Shown here in pieces: positions 52,155-62,268 of a DNA stretch of 64,000 nucleotides. Source of the DNA: Rhodomicrobium sp. Its GTDB lineage: Bacteria; Pseudomonadota; Alphaproteobacteria; Rhizobiales; Rhodomicrobiaceae. Each line of letters begins with the position of its first letter. The first letter of the stretch is position 1. The stretch spans positions 1,624-65,623 of the forward strand of contig JBKQQS010000019.1 in the NCBI GenBank assembly GCA_052144215.1. Direction: 5' to 3'. Under the pieces are notes generated by a model. That model was not told the DNA's origin, did not search any database, and saw only the letters and a list, made by a program, of their open reading frames with translations. A program made the translations under genes and the position numbers.

Positions 52155-52885
52155 ACCGCAAAGCAGTCCCGGCGATGCGTATTCTTGTGACGGGCTTCGG
52201 ACCGTTCCCGGGCATGCCGCAAAACGCCTCCGCAGCCATGGTGGAAGCGCTCGCGCGATCCCCTGCCGATCCCGGCATCGAGCATTTTACCGGGATCGTT
52301 CCGGTCGTCTGGGCCGATGCGAGGCGGATCGCGCGCGAGGCGGCCGCCAAGGTAAGGCCGCACGCAATTTTGCATTTCGGCGTCTCGAAGCGGGCGGCCG
52401 GCTTCGAAATCGAGACGTGCGCCGTCAATATGAGCGGCCCAAGGCAAGATCATGCTGGCTTTGTCCGGCCCGGAAAGCCTCTGGACCTTTCGGGACAGCG
52501 CATATTGCAAGCAACGATGCCGCCTTGCCCGCTTCTGAGGGCGCTCAGGCAAAGCGGGTTTCCGGCGCAGCTTTCGAGGAACGCCGGACGCTATCTCTGC
52601 AATGCGCTGTTCTATTGGAGCCTGGCGGATGCCGGCACGGACGGCCCGCTCGTGAGCTTCATTCATATGCCCGCGCTCGGCACAGACGTGAGCGTCCGGC
52701 CGCGCATGACGCTGGAAGGCGCGGCGGCGGGGGCGCAGGTTCTCATTCGCGCTAGCGCTCAGGCTGTGCTACTCGCGAAGCGGAACGTCGGCGGCAATCG
52801 CGGAGGATACAGCAACCATGGATCGCAGGCACTTCATGGGACTGGGCGGAATGACCGCCGCTCTCTTTGGCGTAAGCGCCGCTGA
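52151..52885 (+). CDS. pcp: Pyroglutamyl-peptidase I (C15)
   Basis: ILVTGFGPFPG...NAS; catalytic residues in FEIE, YLCNALFY and FIHMP. Confidence 0.85.
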   Translation: MNRKAVPAMRILVTGFGPFPGMPQNASAAMVEALARSPADPGIEHFTGIVPVVWADARRIAREAAAKVRPHAILHFGVSKRAAGFEIETCAVNMSGPRQDHAGFVRPGKPLDLSGQRILQATMPPCPLLRALRQSGFPAQLSRNAGRYLCNALFYWSLADAGTDGPLVSFIHMPALGTDVSVRPRMTLEGAAAGAQVLIRASAQAVLLAKRNVGGNRGGYSNHGSQALHGTGRNDRRSLWRKRR

Positions 52886-53639
52886 GGCTGCGCCTGGTAT
52901 TTTGAGCGGCTACGGCAAGGCCCTCGCCGAATGGGGGATCGAGCCGGGCATCTGGGGCGACCAGTCGCCTGCTATGCAAAAGGCCATCGGCGAGCTGGCG
53001 GCGGCCGGCCAGCCTATTGTCATTCCTGCGGGCCGCTATCGTTTTTCAAAGCTTCAGCTTCCTTCGGGGGCTGCCGTGTTCGGCGTTCCGGGCCTCACCG
53101 TTCTAACCGCACCGCCTGGATTGCATGTGTTCGAGAGTTCAAACGCTCAGGATGTTAGCCTGAGGGGCGTAAGCTTCTCAGGGACGGCCCTCTTGGCGCG
53201 CGAGTGCCGCAACCTCACCGTTTCCGATTGCCAGGTCCTATCGAGCGGCGGCGATGGCTTCGTTTGCTCAGGCACCGGCCTGTTCGTGGCCGGCAACAGG
53301 GCCCAAGCTTGCGCCAAAGCTGCGATCTGGGTCGAGGGTGACGGAGTGGTTACGAACAATCTCGTGAGCGGCCCAGGCCAATTCGGCCTGCGGCTCGGTG
53401 GCCCGGCCCGGCTCGGAATGCTGACGGTCATGAACAACAAGATCGAAGGCACAGCCGCCGGTATCGGGGTTTCGAATTCCGACGTTGGCTACGCGTTCAT
53501 CGCGATGAACATGATCTCGGGCGCAAAGAAGGGCGGCATCCGCGCGCTCATGGGCGATGAAATTACCGGCCACGACCTCACCCAAGGCGGGTCGGAAGCA
53601 TTCCGCAATATCGGCGTCGCGGCCAACGTTTCGCTTTGA
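52818..53639 (+). CDS. Tat-exported parallel beta-helix protein (TIGR03808-like)
   Basis: MDRRHF twin-Arg signal; DQSPAMQKAI...IPAGRY (pectate_lyase_3-like start); repeated V.NN/GN beta-helix turns. Confidence 0.7.
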   Translation: MDRRHFMGLGGMTAALFGVSAAEAAPGILSGYGKALAEWGIEPGIWGDQSPAMQKAIGELAAAGQPIVIPAGRYRFSKLQLPSGAAVFGVPGLTVLTAPPGLHVFESSNAQDVSLRGVSFSGTALLARECRNLTVSDCQVLSSGGDGFVCSGTGLFVAGNRAQACAKAAIWVEGDGVVTNNLVSGPGQFGLRLGGPARLGMLTVMNNKIEGTAAGIGVSNSDVGYAFIAMNMISGAKKGGIRALMGDEITGHDLTQGGSEAFRNIGVAANVSL

Positions 53640-53921: not shown

Positions 53922-54221
53922 TCAAAAGCCAGAGAGCACCGTGTGCGTGTGCCCAACCACGGGCGCCGAAGCAAAGTGCGGCCCCACCAGCTTCCGCCAT
54001 TCTTGAAAGTCTTCAGAACCGCGGAAATGTACCATATGGTCCTCAATCGTCTCCCACTTGACGACAAGCCGGTATTTCGATGGCGTCTCGACCGAGCGCT
54101 GCAGCTCCATCCCCCGGCATCCCTTGGCACGCTGGAATAACGGAACGGCCTTGGCAACGCCAGCCTCGAACGCGGCCTCCCCGCCAGCCTTCACCTCTAT
54201 CTCCGCAATCTCGAAAATCAC
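53922..54221 (-). CDS. ABM-domain (antibiotic biosynthesis monooxygenase) protein
   Basis: MIFEIAEIEVKAG.EAAFE...RSVETPSKYRLVVKWETIEDH...FRGS pattern. Confidence 0.88.
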   Translation of the reverse strand: MIFEIAEIEVKAGGEAAFEAGVAKAVPLFQRAKGCRGMELQRSVETPSKYRLVVKWETIEDHMVHFRGSEDFQEWRKLVGPHFASAPVVGHTHTVLSGF

Positions 54222-54811: not shown

Positions 54812-55102
54812 ATGCCGATAGATCTCTCAACGGTCGTGAAGCAGGCAGCCGATCAAGTCTCGTGCAACTTGAACGGCGAGTATGCCATCCTCAATCTAAA
54901 GAGCACTCTTTATTTCGGCCTCAATCAGACCGGCGCGCATATTTGGGAAGCGATGAAAGAGCCGATCGCCGTTACCGATATCTGCGAGACTGTATGTAGC
55001 AGGTTTGACGTTGGCGAGGAGCAATGCCGGTCAGATACTCTGGCACTCGTAGGGGCACTTGAAAAAGCCGGCCTCATTGAGATTGTCGAGCGTGCGAAGT
55101 AA
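54812..55102 (+). CDS. PqqD/RRE lasso leader-binding protein (B1)
   Basis: GEYAILNLKSTLYFGLNQTGAHIWEAM...VCSRFDVGEEQCRSD...LEKAGLI, the PqqD/RRE signature. Confidence 0.92.
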   Translation: MPIDLSTVVKQAADQVSCNLNGEYAILNLKSTLYFGLNQTGAHIWEAMKEPIAVTDICETVCSRFDVGEEQCRSDTLALVGALEKAGLIEIVERAK

Positions 55103-55409
55103 GTATTTAAAAGCCACCGATAATGTTTGGGAATGCGGCGCAACTGGAAATGAGCTTGCAAGTTTTGAAAGTTTATTTTCGGGCGTTCTTGCACGTTCCA
55201 TCGGTGTTTCCCTCCCCGCAAATTATAATGTTCCGGGGCCGGCCGTCATTTGGGGACGTGGTACGAAACCACGGGAGCGGCGCGAAACCGGCTAGAAGGA
55301 CTTGCTCAAGGCCAAGCTGGATTGGATCGCCGATTTCAGGCATCCGAGCAAAGGCTTCGAAGCATGAGCCGGATGGACAAGTTTAACGTGTGTCGCCGCG
55401 GTTCGCATA

Positions 55410-55435
55410 AGGCTTCCGAAGATCTTCGGAAACCT
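55410..55435 (-). terminator. Stem-loop 3' of the lasso precursor gene
   Basis: Minus-strand RNA AGGUUUCCGAA-GAUC-UUCGGAAGCCU pairs fully with one G-U, 21 nt past the stop; no U-tail. Confidence 0.55.
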
Positions 55436-55456
55436 ACGGTAGCGGTTTGGTCAAGC

Positions 55457-55639
55457 TCACAAAAGATGTGTTCTCTCAAGGGGATAGATAAGGCCGCCGT
55501 CCGAGATTCCCCCGAGGCCAATAACCAAGGTGATGTCCTTCAACGTGCCATATTCAATTAGCTTCGGCGCCGCGTAAGCCTCTTTCCCACCGTTTTTCGC
55601 GGAGTCAGTCTGAGACGCTGTATTCTGTGAATTCGCCAT
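55457..55639 (-). CDS. Lasso peptide precursor (A), 60 aa
   Basis: AAAGGGGG RBS. Leader YAAPKLIEYGTLKDITL places Tyr at -17, Gly at -8 and Thr at -2. Core VIGLGGISDGGLIYPLERTHLL has Asp9. Confidence 0.9.
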   Translation of the reverse strand: MANSQNTASQTDSAKNGGKEAYAAPKLIEYGTLKDITLVIGLGGISDGGLIYPLERTHLL

Positions 55640-56075: not shown

Positions 56076-57029
56076 ATGTTTAACTACGATGTCTACGGCG
56101 TAACCCTTAAAAGCGAGATTAAGCTAGCGCTTCCTGAGGGGCCTCGGGAGACTTGGAACGAGGCGGTCTCTTCTCCTTCCAACGCGGTTGTGAGGATCGT
56201 CGCCGCGGAAGCGGACGATTTTGCGATGGCCCCGGAACATCTTGCGTCCCCATCCGAGGATTGGATTCATCATAGCGTCCTTGAGAGCGGCGCTCTGTAT
56301 TTGCGCTGGCGGGATTGGTTCGAATTTGTTGTGGCCGCGGATGGCAGCAGTGTCGCGTGCCGCAACCTGAGCTGCACGCCGCTCGAATCTTTCGAGGCCT
56401 ATTTGGTCAATTTCGCGGTCACCGCGGCATTGATCCAACAAGGCGAAGAACCGTTACACGCGACCGTCGTCGAGATCGGCGGACGCGGCATCGGTTTACT
56501 TGGGTCGAGTGGCGCCGGCAAGTCGACGCTCGCTGCGTTTCTGACCGGCAAAGGCGCCGATGTCGTTACAGACGACATGCTGCGCATCACATTCCGGGGG
56601 CAAACCGCTATCGCACACCCAGGACCCTATCGTCTCAAGCTGTTTCCAGATCCAGCTTCGCGGTTCCTACCGGACGCCCAGAGCCGCGGCCGTTGGAGCC
56701 CGCTCGGCAAGAAACTGATCTACGATTTGGGAGAGGTCCGAAGACACCGGGCCCCGTGCCGCCTCTCCGCGCTCTACCATCTTTGCTTGCCGGCCGGGCC
56801 GCGGAACGATGAGATCAAGCTCGAGAAACTTGCCGGCACCGATTCGTTCAGAACGATCTTGGCTTCAACAATGAATGCTCGCTTGCATACGCCGTCGCGG
56901 CTCGAACGTCAGTTCCGTTTCGCCGAGCGCGTGGCCAGCGTGCTGCCCGTTTGCCGTCTGTCTTATCCGAGGCGGTTCGACGCCTTCGCGGAGGTCGCGG
57001 ACATGATCGATGGGTCGGCTCCAAAGTGA
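56076..57029 (+). CDS. HPr-kinase-like kinase of the lasso cluster
   Basis: LHATVV, Walker A GSSGAGKST and TDD motifs; stop overlaps the B2 start (GTGA). An upstream in-frame start at 55980 is possible. Confidence 0.85.
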   Translation: MFNYDVYGVTLKSEIKLALPEGPRETWNEAVSSPSNAVVRIVAAEADDFAMAPEHLASPSEDWIHHSVLESGALYLRWRDWFEFVVAADGSSVACRNLSCTPLESFEAYLVNFAVTAALIQQGEEPLHATVVEIGGRGIGLLGSSGAGKSTLAAFLTGKGADVVTDDMLRITFRGQTAIAHPGPYRLKLFPDPASRFLPDAQSRGRWSPLGKKLIYDLGEVRRHRAPCRLSALYHLCLPAGPRNDEIKLEKLAGTDSFRTILASTMNARLHTPSRLERQFRFAERVASVLPVCRLSYPRRFDAFAEVADMIDGSAPK

Positions 57030-57469
57030 CAAATTGGATGGCGCCCAAAGGATTGACGTTCCGGCATTATTCCTGGTTCGTGAGGGCCTGGTTCACCTTG
57101 GCGGAGTGCCGGCTTCGATTGGCGTGTCAGACATTCGGAGCCGTGCGCGGCTGGGCAGCGCGGCAAGGCCGCGGTACGGCGCGTGCGAAGACGCTGGCGT
57201 GGTCTGTCGAAGCGGCTGCAAAGCGGCAGAGAGGAGCAACATGTCTTGTTAAGGCGCTCGCATTGCAGCGATTGCTTTCGAGAAACGGGCATCAATCGGA
57301 ATTGCGAATAGGCGTCGGCAAGGCGGATGGGACGTTCAGGGCCCATGCATGGCTCGTCTCTGACCGCGTAACCTTGATAGGGGGACGAGAAGAAGACGAT
57401 TTCAAGCTCCTTGCCGCCTGGCCCACCTCCAGCGAACGTAGTGCCGATAAAGGAACAAGGTCTCCATGA
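57026..57469 (+). CDS. Lasso leader peptidase (B2, transglutaminase-like)
   Basis: Catalytic Cys (ATCLVKALAL), LRIGV and His (FRAHAWL). Confidence 0.92.
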   Translation: MTNWMAPKGLTFRHYSWFVRAWFTLAECRLRLACQTFGAVRGWAARQGRGTARAKTLAWSVEAAAKRQRGATCLVKALALQRLLSRNGHQSELRIGVGKADGTFRAHAWLVSDRVTLIGGREEDDFKLLAAWPTSSERSADKGTRSP

Positions 57470-59226
57470 GCTTCAAAGTCGTTTTCAACCGCGACGGTGC
57501 GCCCATCGGCACCGGCGGGTGCGAGGCGGAATACGGAAGGGGTCAAAAAGTCCTCGGGGCCTCGAAACAGGTATTGTTCACCTGGTCCAGCGCGAAGGAC
57601 GGCCCGCCCATCCAACAGGCAAGCTCTCCCGGCGGCCAGGTCTTCATCGTGGGCCGGATTCGCCTCGATGCCCGCGGAGATTTGGCGGCCCGATTAGGCG
57701 CCAGCGATAAAGTGAGCGACGCGCAATTGTGCCTTCTGGCCTATGCGAAGTGGGATGAGCGCTTTAGCGATCGCATATCGGGGGATTTTTGTTTCGCGAT
57801 CTGGGACGAGGCCCGGCAGACCTTGTTGTGCATGCGCGATCACCTGGGCGTGAGGCCACTTTTTTATGCGAAGGCGGGTTCTCAATGGCTGATCGGTGAC
57901 GATCTCGCCAGCGTCGTCCCGGAGCCCCAAATGGGCTGCGAACTCGACGCGTTCTGGATTGCTGACTTTCTAACCATTGGTTTTTCTATCGACTTTGAGC
58001 GCACCGTCTACCGCCACATTCAGCGGCTACCGCCTGCGCATGTCCTTGTGTTGTCTGCCACAAGCGAAGCGGTGCAAAAATACTGGTCGCTCGATATTCC
58101 ACAGCCGGTCTACTTTCGCGAGCCAAGAGAATATCTGGAGCAATTTCGCGAGCTCGTATCGCGGGCCATCGTGGACCGCATGCCCAGCGGCCGCGTAGGG
58201 ATTTCGCTCAGCGGCGGTCTCGATTCTTCCACGCTCGCTGCACTGGCAGTGAAGGCTGCCGGCGATCCGGCCCGGGTGGTCGCCCAAACCCGCTATTTAT
58301 CCCGCCTCATTCCGGACACCGAAGCTTATTTCAGCGCTCTTGTCGCAAACAAGCTTGGCATCGAGCATGCTCTATTGGAAAGAGATCAAGACTTTCTCGA
58401 TTGGTCCTGCCTTGAGCACACCGGCCAGACGCCAGAGCCGTCGCTCTCGGTTGGAAACACGGAGAGAGGAAAATGCATCGAAAACGAAATGCTGGGTTCC
58501 GCAAAGGTATGGTTCTACGGTGAGGGGCCCGACAATGCTCTCACATTCGAGTGGCGGTCTTATCTGCGCTGGCTCAAAAACAGCCGCAAATGGCCGGAGC
58601 TTGGACATGCTGCTGTACAATATTTTCGTTCTAAGAAAACGCGCGAATGGCTTCAATCCTTACGCTCTCTCCTGGCAATCGCGAACCCAAAGCAAAGCCA
58701 ATTCCGTATCGCGGTGCCATCCTGGCTGGACGGCGATTTAATTAAAAAGGTTGACCTCCACCGGAGAGTTGGCCGGTCATCCGGCGTTAGCACACACCCG
58801 TGGCGGCCTAGAGCCATGGCCTCATTCAATAGCCCGATCTGGCAGTACTTTTTCGAGCGATTAGACCCGGTCCTAGCTGGAACCCGCCTCGATTGGCGGC
58901 ATCCGTACTTAGATCTGCGAGTTCTGAAGTTTTTGCTCGCGGTTCCGCCAATTCCATGGGGGCGCAGAAAGCTGCTCATGCGTCAATCTATGCGCGGTTA
59001 TCTTCCGGCGGAAATTCTGACCAGAGACAAAACGCCGCTGCAGGGAGAGCCGTTCGCGGCGGCGTTTGAAGAGACGGCACGCCCATCGCTGACACCAGGA
59101 CAAACGATCTTGGACTTTGTGGATCTTGCAAGAATTCCGGTCAACCCGGCAACGCCATTCGAGAAGGAGGCGCTGCTCAGGGTTTACGCACTCAATCGGT
59201 GGCTGGGATCGCATGGATATCGCTGA
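57466..59226 (+). CDS. Lasso cyclase (C, asparagine-synthetase-like)
   Basis: GDFCFAIWD...RDHLGVRPLFY, ATP motif SLSGGLDSS, HPYLDLRV and RDKTP; ATGA overlap with B2. Confidence 0.93.
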   Translation: MSFKVVFNRDGAPIGTGGCEAEYGRGQKVLGASKQVLFTWSSAKDGPPIQQASSPGGQVFIVGRIRLDARGDLAARLGASDKVSDAQLCLLAYAKWDERFSDRISGDFCFAIWDEARQTLLCMRDHLGVRPLFYAKAGSQWLIGDDLASVVPEPQMGCELDAFWIADFLTIGFSIDFERTVYRHIQRLPPAHVLVLSATSEAVQKYWSLDIPQPVYFREPREYLEQFRELVSRAIVDRMPSGRVGISLSGGLDSSTLAALAVKAAGDPARVVAQTRYLSRLIPDTEAYFSALVANKLGIEHALLERDQDFLDWSCLEHTGQTPEPSLSVGNTERGKCIENEMLGSAKVWFYGEGPDNALTFEWRSYLRWLKNSRKWPELGHAAVQYFRSKKTREWLQSLRSLLAIANPKQSQFRIAVPSWLDGDLIKKVDLHRRVGRSSGVSTHPWRPRAMASFNSPIWQYFFERLDPVLAGTRLDWRHPYLDLRVLKFLLAVPPIPWGRRKLLMRQSMRGYLPAEILTRDKTPLQGEPFAAAFEETARPSLTPGQTILDFVDLARIPVNPATPFEKEALLRVYALNRWLGSHGYR

Positions 59227-60370
59227 CATGCCTCCTGAAATCGAGTTACTTTGCTGCCTGACGCGTCCGGATGCAGACTATAAACGGGTATTGGAACTAA
59301 CAGCGCCTGGGTTCGATTGGACGCGGGTCTTTAGTTTAGCGGCAATGCATGGGGTAAGACCACACCTGCTACACGCTCTCCGGAGTCCGCAATGCAGCGT
59401 TGAGGCAAGTGAAATCAAAGAAAAACTTGAACGATTTGAATGGGCGCAAGCTGCACGAAACCTCACCTTCACAAGGGAATTACTGAGGATCGCCGATAAG
59501 CTCGACTCGCGTGGAATACCTTTTGCGACTTTCAAGGGAGCTACACTTGCCCTGACGCTCTACGGCGGCCTCGCCCGGCGCGAATTCAACGATATCGATC
59601 TCATCGTGCGTCATGCCGATATGCCGGCTGCCGAAGAAGCTCTGCAATCTTGCGGCTATAGAGCAATGTTTGGCGCTGCGCACTATCGCAGTGCCTTCCT
59701 CGCCTATCAACAACAGCATATGTTTGTAAACGATGACTCAAGCATTGGGATCGACCTCCATTGGGGTTTCGCCCCAAAAGGCATACCGTTTCCAATCCAC
59801 GCGGGCACGATATGGGGAAACCTTGAAACTGTGCAGATTGGTGGACGTCAAATTCCAACCCTCGGGCGAGACGATCTTGCAATCTTACTCGCCGGACATG
59901 GAACAAAGGAAAGGTGGCGGTCTCTTGACTGGATATGTGACTTTGCCTTCTTTTACGATAGCCACACTGAAATCGATTGGAGCGCACTCATTGCGCGTGC
60001 AAGGCGGATCCGGTGTGAGAGGCCAATTTTGTTGGGGTGCACGTTGATTTCCGAACTCATGGGAATTAGCGTAAATCCGAAAATCCTTCAAAGCGCAAGG
60101 AGCGAGCCATCTATCCAAGCTCTGGTCCGTTCGATTGTTACGGGACTCAGCGCTTCAAGCATCGAGGCAGACGCGGTTGCGGCTGGCAATCGTGTTGACT
60201 TCGTCCTTTGCGAGACCTCGATCCAGAAGTTGAACGTTCTTCTCCGTCTTTGCTTCATTCCAACCGTTGGCGATTACGAGACTATGCCTATTCCGCGTTC
60301 CTTGTGGCCGCTTTACCATGTCACGAGACCCTTCCGCCTTGCACGCAAGCTTTTATCGGGAAGTATTTGA
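59213..60370 (+). CDS. Nucleotidyltransferase (NTP_transf_5-like)
   Basis: TFKGATLALTLYG...REFNDIDLIV (G...D-x-D) and IDLHW motifs; overlaps the cyclase stop. Confidence 0.88.
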   Translation: MDIADMPPEIELLCCLTRPDADYKRVLELTAPGFDWTRVFSLAAMHGVRPHLLHALRSPQCSVEASEIKEKLERFEWAQAARNLTFTRELLRIADKLDSRGIPFATFKGATLALTLYGGLARREFNDIDLIVRHADMPAAEEALQSCGYRAMFGAAHYRSAFLAYQQQHMFVNDDSSIGIDLHWGFAPKGIPFPIHAGTIWGNLETVQIGGRQIPTLGRDDLAILLAGHGTKERWRSLDWICDFAFFYDSHTEIDWSALIARARRIRCERPILLGCTLISELMGISVNPKILQSARSEPSIQALVRSIVTGLSASSIEADAVAAGNRVDFVLCETSIQKLNVLLRLCFIPTVGDYETMPIPRSLWPLYHVTRPFRLARKLLSGSI

Positions 60371-60423: not shown

Positions 60424-62268
60424 TTAGTTGCCCGGTTCCCGATGCCTGTCGAACAGCTCGCCCGGCATGGCATCGGCGTTTTGCTGTCCGCTTAGCAGAT
60501 TGCCTTTCCCGCCAATGGCACTGCGGGGCGGCCCAATGTTTACGGCATATCCGCCTTCCAGCAAGATGAGTTGGTCCATCCATGCGATGGACGGCGCGCG
60601 GTGCGCGATCATGACAATCGTTACCTGGCCCAAGAGATCGCGCAAGGCGGCGATGATCTCGCGTTCGTCGACAGGGTTCAAGGCATTTGTGGCCTCGTCG
60701 AGAATGAGCAGTGAGGGTTTGCGAAGCAGGGCGCTCGCAATTCGCAGCCTTTGCCGCTCACCGCCCGACAGGCGCACGCCGCGGTCGCCAGCCATGGTCT
60801 CGAGGCCCAAGGGTAGCCCCCGCACGAGCGGCACTGCATGCGCGAGATCGAGACAACGCCATATGTCGGCTTCGCTGGCTCCGCGGGCCCCGATGAGCAG
60901 GTTGGCCCGGATCGTATCGTGAAAAAGCGGTGCGTCCTGCGGCACATAGGTGACGCTGGCACGCCAGTGAGGCCGCGAATGCTCATCGATAGGCGCTCCG
61001 TCGATCAGCAGCGCACCACTGGTGGGTGCCAGCAGCCCAGCGATCAGATCGGCGAGCGTCGATTTGCCGGCGCCGGACAACCCAACAATCCCGATCGCCT
61101 TTCCGGCAGGCAGCTCCAACGAGACACGGTGAAGTGTCCACTCGCCGGACTGCTCCGGATATCTGAAGCTCACGTCACGCAACTCAATCCCGCGGCGCAG
61201 CGCGATTGGCACGATTGTCTCGGGCAACGCTTCCTCGGCAGCGCGTGCTCTCGCCTCTATGGTGCGCAGCGCATCGTACTCGGCCAAGGCGCTCCCCAGC
61301 CCCTGCAATCCAGACAAAAAATTGATGGCTAGCGGTAGCAAGCGGGAGAAGATCGCGATGAGGAGGATCAACTCAAGGCTCGATGCCCGGAAGATCCTAA
61401 GGCTCGCATAGACGAACAGGACAAGGATTAAAGCGGCGGCGGTTTCCTGCACCAGCGTGGCGCGCGCGCCGTTCTCGCGTGCGGCAACCACCGCACCTTG
61501 AAAGGAACCCGAGATCACGGAGAAGTCTCGCTCGAGTTCCCGTTCTATCGCGAAAGCCTTGGCGAGCTTCAGCCCGTCCATGCGCGCGGCAAGCACGTCG
61601 TAAAGGCCTCTCATGGCACGCACAGTTTCTGTACCCCGCTGATACGCCCGTCTTTGAAAGATGAGCAGCGGAGCAGCCAGTACCAGCATCGCGGCCAGCA
61701 CGGCTATGACCAGTGGCGGCGAGGCGGCGAACGCGACACCGAGCCCGGCCAAGATTGTCAGCACGGACGCGGTTAGCCCGAAAATGGCAAAGGCTGCGCT
61801 TTCGACGCTGTTTACTTGCATCGTTAGCGCGTAGGTGTCATGCGCCTTTCTGGAGCCCAGGAAATGCAGCCAGCTCGCCCGCGAAAACGTCGTGTAGATC
61901 CTCCGCCGGACATGGTCGACGTAGCCCGCCATGAACTGCGCGGCGAGAACGGTGCTCGCGTAACCAACTGCCGAACGTAGCAGGATGATTACAAAGAAGA
62001 CTGCGAGCACCAGCTCCAGCGTTGGCGTTAGCCCAGTAATCGTCTGAAATTTGATTAGGCTCGCGCGCGCCCAGCCTCCAGTCTCAGAGGATGGTGCGAG
62101 GCCGGCGAATGCCAGCAAAGGGATGAGCAGCACGAAAGTTAGGCCTTCGGTAAAGCTGCGTACCAGCATCAGCAGCACCACCCCGCCCAGCATCCGGGGG
62201 CGGAACCTAACGAGGTCTGAAAGGAAGACCGAGGCCGATGAAAGGACTTGGTGCCGGGTTGCGCTCAC
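60424..62268 (-). CDS. ABC exporter (fused TMD-NBD; lasso D-like)
   Basis: Six-TM N-terminal domain, Walker A GLSGAGKST, signature LSGGERQR, Walker B LILDEAT and H-loop IAHR. Confidence 0.93.
   Translation of the reverse strand: MSATRHQVLSSASVFLSDLVRFRPRMLGGVVLLMLVRSFTEGLTFVLLIPLLAFAGLAPSSETGGWARASLIKFQTITGLTPTLELVLAVFFVIILLRSAVGYASTVLAAQFMAGYVDHVRRRIYTTFSRASWLHFLGSRKAHDTYALTMQVNSVESAAFAIFGLTASVLTILAGLGVAFAASPPLVIAVLAAMLVLAAPLLIFQRRAYQRGTETVRAMRGLYDVLAARMDGLKLAKAFAIERELERDFSVISGSFQGAVVAARENGARATLVQETAAALILVLFVYASLRIFRASSLELILLIAIFSRLLPLAINFLSGLQGLGSALAEYDALRTIEARARAAEEALPETIVPIALRRGIELRDVSFRYPEQSGEWTLHRVSLELPAGKAIGIVGLSGAGKSTLADLIAGLLAPTSGALLIDGAPIDEHSRPHWRASVTYVPQDAPLFHDTIRANLLIGARGASEADIWRCLDLAHAVPLVRGLPLGLETMAGDRGVRLSGGERQRLRIASALLRKPSLLILDEATNALNPVDEREIIAALRDLLGQVTIVMIAHRAPSIAWMDQLILLEGGYAVNIGPPRSAIGGKGNLLSGQQNADAMPGELFDRHREPGN

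Follow-up and report, generated by a model that had tools for sequence, protein, structure and literature searches.

A conserved tail threonine as the predicted target of a kinase and nucleotidyltransferase pair in a Rhodomicrobium lasso-peptide cluster

What does a lasso-peptide kinase act on when its precursor does not end in serine? The question is raised by a stretch of 64,000 nucleotides from contig JBKQQS010000019.1 of Rhodomicrobium sp. (assembly GCA_052144215.1), here called the window, whose 3' part contains one complete split-B lasso-peptide cluster composed of the genes B1, A (on the minus strand), K, B2, C, N and D. The enzymes that characterize such clusters are all present, namely a PqqD-like RRE (RiPP recognition element, RiPPs being peptides made on ribosomes and then modified post-translationally), a transglutaminase-like B2 protease and an asparagine-synthetase-like cyclase, together with an HprK-like kinase, K, and a nucleotidyltransferase-fold enzyme, N. 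The precursor encoded by A joins the leader MANSQNTASQTDSAKNGGKEAYAAPKLIEYGTLKDITL to the 22-residue core VIGLGGISDGGLIYPLERTHLL, and the initial annotation rightly pointed out that this core has no C-terminal Ser, as it reads directly as ...ERTHLL followed by the stop codon. Among the targets then proposed, an internal residue agrees with the comparison made here, which narrows it to Thr19, the only family-conserved residue of four candidates, while the option of vestigial enzymes finds no support. The reading that we favour, with a confidence only slightly above even, is that K would phosphorylate Thr19 on the linear precursor and N would elaborate the phosphate.

A threonine conserved in the tail of the core

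Tyr-17, Pro-14, Leu-12 and Thr-2 of the leader stand at the canonical YxxPxL spacing, and the NF033521 lasso leader domain matches A above its cut-off. The canonical spacing places the cut after Leu-1 and therefore sets the numbering of the core as Val1, Ser8, Asp9, Tyr14, Thr19 and His20, with Asp9 inside the 7-9 range of positions where the Asp or Glu of a lasso ring is expected. As had been listed earlier, Ser8, Tyr14, Thr19 and His20 constitute the full set of hydroxyl and imidazole residues in the core, Thr19 being part of an R-T-H motif four residues from the C-terminus.

The kinase family to which K belongs comprises 731 proteins (E<1e-5). A scan of genome contigs with a single kinase returned one locus (L001), and metagenome contigs, scanned subsequently with a profile, yielded 80, in which precursors with the same leader adjoin K. 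A profile search of a 90%-clustered protein collection contributed 120 further precursors, and HMMER over 50%-identity representatives gave 3149 profile matches at E<1e-3, the best 150 of which were read. Merging the 80 metagenome loci with the two protein searches produced 277 distinct family cores, 173 of a short type, which is that of the window, and 104 of a long type; L053, a long locus carrying K without N, was left out, no precursor having been found in it. The habitat of the family is mainly soil and freshwater, as represented in metagenomes.

All these cores have the pattern x-x-G-x-x-G-x-x-D-G-G in common, and little else besides one Thr. The ring Asp aligned with Asp9 is kept in every one of them, at position 9 in 114/154 and at position 8 or 10 in the rest, and both Gly3 and Gly6 are conserved, position 3 being Gly in 45 of 53 cores. 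The first residue of the core is unusually free: it is Val in the window (55523-55525, minus strand) and Thr (74), Ala (31), Ser (18) or His (14) in the family, more rarely Lys, Gln, Phe, Leu, Val, Met or Tyr. Gly, with which lasso cores usually begin, hardly occurs there.

In the short type, Thr is found within the last six residues in 164 of the 173 cores and is replaced there by Ser in five, the remaining four having K/R-Thr slightly further upstream. This tail Thr lies 1-4 residues from the C-terminus, has a Lys or an Arg at position -1 or -2 from it in 155 of the 164 cores and, in the register given by an Asp at position 9, is most often residue 19 (D+10), as in the window. Ten short cores, such as HVGHEGHLDGGKKLFFRRTR and ALGLGGMPDGGIIKLAQRTRLL, contain no other Ser, Thr or Tyr. 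A C-terminal Ser occurs in 11/173 short cores, which is about the background frequency of Ser. Tails otherwise range from hydrophobic (LIYPLE) to polycationic (KGKQPRR) and, because the rest of the tail is so variable, the enzymes that the clusters share are a likelier source of the constraint on Thr than a common target. Moreover, a position where Thr may be exchanged for Ser and nothing else is tolerated shows the pattern expected of a hydroxyl acceptor. The whole family of [K/R]-T tail-Thr cores amounts to at least about 280 distinct cores. The other candidates were rejected as conserved acceptors: only 58/173 short cores have Ser or Thr just before the ring Asp, where the window has Ser8, and Tyr14 and His20 both fall in variable columns.

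In the long type, exemplified by L027:10701, L031:10844 and L044:10691, Thr is present within T-[G/K/A]-R-G-G in all 104 cores. Half of the long cores combine the invariant T-G-R-G-G with a C-terminal Ser, holding two candidate acceptors in one tail; in the close relatives L040 and L043 the terminal Ser has been lost, the Thr never.

The kinase tree places the K of the window in a well-supported clade with L003-5 (AIGTRGNSDGGILPPLNRTSLL), L006 and L008/9. In the loci of this clade A is divergent and upstream of K, and all the precursors are of the short type, none of them ending in Ser. Elsewhere in the family, tandem precursors, two or three with different cores and each with a tail Thr, are found in L054, L055, L061, L070, L076 and L079; in the case of L076, a hydrophobic ...QRTRLL core resembling that of the window is paired with a cationic ...RRTRW core. 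A lasso-leader-like motif is repeated four or five times in two longer proteins, P0241 (382 aa) and P0253 (199 aa), which may represent genuine multi-leader proteins or gene calls that run through tandem precursors.

Motifs, folds and selection in K and N

The statement of the initial annotation that both enzymes retain their catalytic motifs holds in full, since all the motif residues are present and invariant among homologues. In K, these are H128, G143-xx-G146-x-G148-K149-S150-T151 and D166-D167, with H/G/G/G/K/S/D/D invariant in an alignment of 41 homologues and with a spacing identical to that of the H148...D187 motif of the lasso kinase BsfK. The profile of the K family matches HprK/P structures (E 3e-6), and the structure model of K, with a predicted local distance difference test score (pLDDT) of 91, matches HprK/P and phosphoenolpyruvate carboxykinase, which have that fold in common. 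In N, residues K108-G109, D127-x-D129 and D181-x-H183 are invariant in 13-32 homologues, so that the catalytic DxD of a PsmN-like NTP_transf_5 gene is in place. The structure model of N (pLDDT 86) finds its best folds in the Protein Data Bank (PDB) in ANT(2'')-Ia, MenT, LnuA, TglT and FKRP; no PDB entry was matched by the sequence of N, the fold search alone being informative.

K and N occur together in 38 of 39 informative loci, that is, those whose contig reaches far enough, the exception being L053, and no cluster with N and without K was seen among the family loci. The gene order K-B2-C-N is kept in relatives, the genes overlapping or abutting. In one subclade (L010:3197-4387 and L012:1008-2237), N is strongly diverged, at 38-41 bits against the family profile, and has moved from its place after the cyclase to one between B1 and A.

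Over ten moderately diverged cluster pairs, the ratio of non-synonymous to synonymous substitution rates (dN/dS) was 0.13-0.37 for K, 0.17-0.26 for N and 0.18-0.35 for the cyclase. K and N are, family-wide, under purifying selection comparable to that on the cyclase, and the pairs compared include clusters whose precursors have no terminal Ser. Because of this selection, the suggestion that the enzymes might be vestigial is unsupported for the family. The window's own K and N open reading frames are full length and contain every family-invariant residue. Judged by motifs, folds and selection, both enzymes look active.

Known lasso kinases and competing explanations

The premise from which the question arose, that kinases of this class act on a C-terminal Ser, is correct for the paeninodin type and outdated beyond it, as BsfK and LppK phosphorylate a non-terminal Ser3; a different target is not surprising in itself, because these internal sites are already published. 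For PadeK, ThcoK and SyanK, the C-terminal Ser is both the acceptor and the main specificity determinant (Zhu et al. 2016, as reviewed in PMC9266682 and PMC8498205), and paeninodin-type kinases phosphorylate the linear precursor before cleavage and cyclization (PMC9266682, PMC8498205). K resembles them as an HprK-like P-loop kinase from a lasso cluster, but the precursors of that type end in Ser, whereas the core of the window ends in Leu.

A closer likeness is found in Bradymonas sediminis FA350, whose bsf cluster is also of the split-B lasso type and combines an HprK-like kinase and an N gene (BsfN; PMC10368454) with a precursor not terminated by Ser. BsfK phosphorylates the ring Ser3 of BsfA, which ends in Asp (Duan et al. 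2023; PMC10368454). The enzyme is sped up by the RRE, uses the precursor and not the core, and accepts the S3T exchange, while mutagenesis showed its H/G/G/G/K/S/D/D motif residues to be important; its identity to other lasso kinases is reported as under 21% (PMC10368454). The likeness is one of functional analogy only, a cluster with K (and N) and without a terminal Ser having an internal acceptor. In fact, a Bsf-type precursor has Ser or Thr at core position 3 and Ile or Val at -2, with Ile(-2) and a Gly1-Asp8 ring in BsfA itself, whereas A has Gly3, Thr(-2) and Val1-Asp9, and its family a conserved tail Thr.

With regard to N, the characterized counterpart is PsmN, which decorates the pseudomycoidin phosphate with one or two hexoses and does so only on the phosphorylated peptide (Zyubko et al. 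2019; PMC6993621). The K and N pair is common to both clusters; N shows the DxD metal site together with a fold like that of ANT(2''), and its fold search gives the same PDB entries (5cfs, 4xje) as were obtained with Phyre2 for PsmN (PMC6993621). The pseudomycoidin cluster, however, belongs to Bacillota and its hexose is carried by the phosphate of a C-terminal Ser, which A does not possess; in the window, the predicted site is a Thr four residues from the end. The Lpp system also combines an RRE, an HprK-like kinase and an NTP (nucleoside triphosphate) transferase with a leader-bearing peptide and a non-terminal acceptor, LppK polyphosphorylating Ser3 in linear peptides while LppN was inactive in the host used (Popov et al. 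2026; PMC13381572). It differs in having neither cyclase nor B2, so that its products are linear, and in the rejection of Thr by LppK.

On these analogies, the following pathway can be proposed. B1 would bind the YxxPxL leader, and K, an HprK-fold P-loop kinase, would phosphorylate Thr19 of the still-linear, B1-bound precursor, as PadeK and BsfK do with theirs. N, as an ANT(2'')-like homologue of PsmN, would then elaborate the Thr19 phosphate with a hexose or a nucleotide-derived group, B2 would cut after Leu-1, C would join Val1 to Asp9 and D would export the product, in which the short tail may be locked in part by a bulky anionic group situated right under the ring. Thr19 is put forward as the modified hydroxyl because, however much the tails vary, Thr persists or gives way to Ser alone, always in the company of K and N. 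We infer the acceptor, the order in which the enzymes would act on it, the chemistry of N and the locking role. Extended to the whole family, the proposal would make a third acceptor class for HprK-like RiPP kinases, an invariant tail Thr in [K/R]-T that keeps a nearly constant spacing to the ring Asp (mode +10) and defines the family, with the N-elaborated phospho-Thr as a steric lock keeping very short or plug-poor tails, and an unusually free residue 1, threaded; this extension is tentative, and we regard it as possible though still doubtful.

Several points weigh against the assignment of Thr19 to K. In the long type, 52 of the 104 cores also end in Ser, far over background and, because of this strong enrichment, K may use the terminal Ser there, in which case the Thr would serve N or have a structural function. 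A Thr substituted for the Ser was not accepted by LppK (PMC13381572). The sole characterized proteobacterial pair, SyanA/SyanK, is of a different type and cannot calibrate the tail-Thr family, SyanA (GTSYGESLDATFPDGTPRGELTFS; sequence from the supplement of PMC10368454) having another type of core. Furthermore, conservation alone cannot separate a site for K from a site for N, or from a structural or cyclase-recognition role.

Thr19 could, for instance, be kept for folding, cyclase recognition or target binding while K phosphorylates Ser8 in the ring, beside Asp9, much as BsfK acts on a ring Ser in a cluster with K and N and no terminal Ser in the precursor. Both the window and L003, its closest relative, do have Ser8, but in L006 and L008, within the same kinase clade, the residue is Pro8, and in the short cores of the family that do not have Ser or Thr there the position is taken by Pro, Phe, Asn, Ala, Leu, Lys or Gln. 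With the prevalence of Gly3, the cores have no equivalent of the Bsf Ser3 either, and ten of them carry no hydroxyl besides the tail Thr, all of which makes Ser8 quite unlikely. It is also conceivable, albeit unlikely, that N modifies Thr19 directly by O-nucleotidylylation and that the substrate of K is the adduct, a different residue or a co-substrate. Among solved folds, those nearest to N, ANT(2'')-Ia and LnuA, belong to O-nucleotidylyltransferases acting on hydroxyls, and N is linked to Thr-bearing precursors as tightly as K is; on the other hand PsmN, the one characterized homologue, requires the peptide to be phosphorylated already and attaches 162 Da rather than a nucleotide, and the family has yielded no cluster in which N occurs without K.

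The two remaining explanations take the enzymes away from this precursor altogether. K and N might serve another substrate (a small molecule, another protein or self-immunity) or be inactive passengers here, and the absence of the island from 36 congeneric genomes leaves no close relative with which decay could be compared. Nevertheless, the intact reading frames, the conserved order of overlapping or abutting genes and the purifying selection in relatives whose precursors have no terminal Ser all speak against it, and every characterized homologue acts on its cognate precursor, so that we hold this to be very unlikely. As for a second, Ser-terminated precursor encoded elsewhere, which the initial annotation had named as one of two findings that would overturn its view, none was found in the Rhodomicrobium sp. 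assembly (4.57 Mb, 135 contigs, 99.25% complete) by a six-frame motif scan, where the A of the window was the sole credible lasso precursor, or by a profile from 27 family precursors, which scored A at E 8e-19 and the next best at E 3.6, a leader-only profile being in agreement. Moreover, tblastn detected one B1/K/B2/C/N set only, and the genome carries a single PF14907 gene. A small gene lying at a gap among the 135 contigs could be missed, and several related clusters have two or three precursor genes, but in these multi-precursor relatives every precursor has Thr and none a terminal Ser. That the real substrate is such a second precursor can accordingly be given almost no weight, and Thr19, phosphorylated by K and elaborated by N, stays the favoured target.

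Genomic setting and significance

The coordinates of the cluster are given in Table 1. Upstream of it lie a secreted right-handed beta-helix protein (52818-53639, plus strand) and an ABM-family monooxygenase (53922-54221, minus strand), and a homologue of D, which is convergent to the other enzyme genes, is found at the same place in several related loci. Scans for sigma-70 promoters and terminators around A gave matches at chance level only. The hairpin found 3' of A belongs to a stretch (55330-55470, minus strand) with a folding energy of -41.6 kcal/mol (z = -2.1), and may stabilize or attenuate the A transcript.

Table 1. Features of the lasso-peptide cluster, in window coordinates
Feature	Position	Strand	Remarks
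B1, PqqD-type RRE, leader-binding chaperone	54812-55102	+	PF05402 E 3e-17; NCBIfam lasso PqqD chaperone NF033536 E 2e-18, under family cut-off
Hairpin, perfect, 11 bp	55410-55438	-	GGUUUCCGAAG...CUUCGGAAGCC; some 20 nt downstream of the stop codon of A, no T-run
A, lasso precursor, 60 aa	55457-55639	-	leader 55526-55639; core 55460-55525; stop codon 55457-55459
Thr19 codon (ACA)	55469-55471	-	predicted acceptor of K/N-dependent modification, from family conservation
Ser8-Asp9 codons	55499-55504	-	Asp9, predicted ring-closing residue; Ser8, non-conserved candidate acceptor
K, HprK-like precursor kinase, 317 aa	56076-57029	+	Hpr_kinase_C E 2e-7, under gathering score
K motif, H128	56457-56459	+	
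K motif, P-loop G143-T151	56502-56528	+	
K motif, D166-D167	56571-56576	+	
B2, transglutaminase-like leader peptidase	57026 or 57038 to 57469	+	start GTG 57026 (overlaps K stop codon) or ATG 57038; PF13471 E 4e-17; lasso B2 NF033537 E 2e-18, over cut-off
C, asparagine-synthetase-like lasso cyclase, 586 aa	57466-59226	+	PF00733 E 2e-20; NF033535 E 2e-68, under cut-off
N, NTP_transf_5 nucleotidyltransferase-fold enzyme, 385 aa	59213-60370	+	PF14907 E 2e-55
N motif, K108-G109	59534-59539	+	
N motif, D127-x-D129	59591-59599	+	
N motif, D181-x-H183	59753-59761	+	
D, ATP-binding cassette (ABC) exporter, transmembrane domain and ATPase	60424-62268	-	convergent; ABC_tran E 1e-31, ABC_membrane

The content of guanine plus cytosine falls to 52-55% between positions 54000 and 60500 of the window, against 62-65% in the flanks, and K is missing from 36 congeneric genomes and, among 24 other families of the order, from 23. 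Because of this dip and of the missing kinase, the lasso cluster is an accessory island, and it was probably acquired horizontally.

The searchable literature yielded no account of this family or of a lasso kinase whose acceptor is a tail Thr. The predicted tail-Thr site, which the alignments suggest, would be the new part, and the surprise is limited because phosphorylation of internal sites by HprK-like RiPP kinases had already been published. If the prediction is true, lasso kinases would use three kinds of site, namely a C-terminal Ser, a ring Ser3 and a tail Thr, and a substrate rule, [K/R]-T near the C-terminus, would be available for a very large family of environmental lasso clusters, with a wider use of lasso kinases as tools for peptide engineering. 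In addition, the cluster would then offer a tractable system for the function of the widespread NTP_transf_5 enzymes represented by PsmN, BsfN and LppN.

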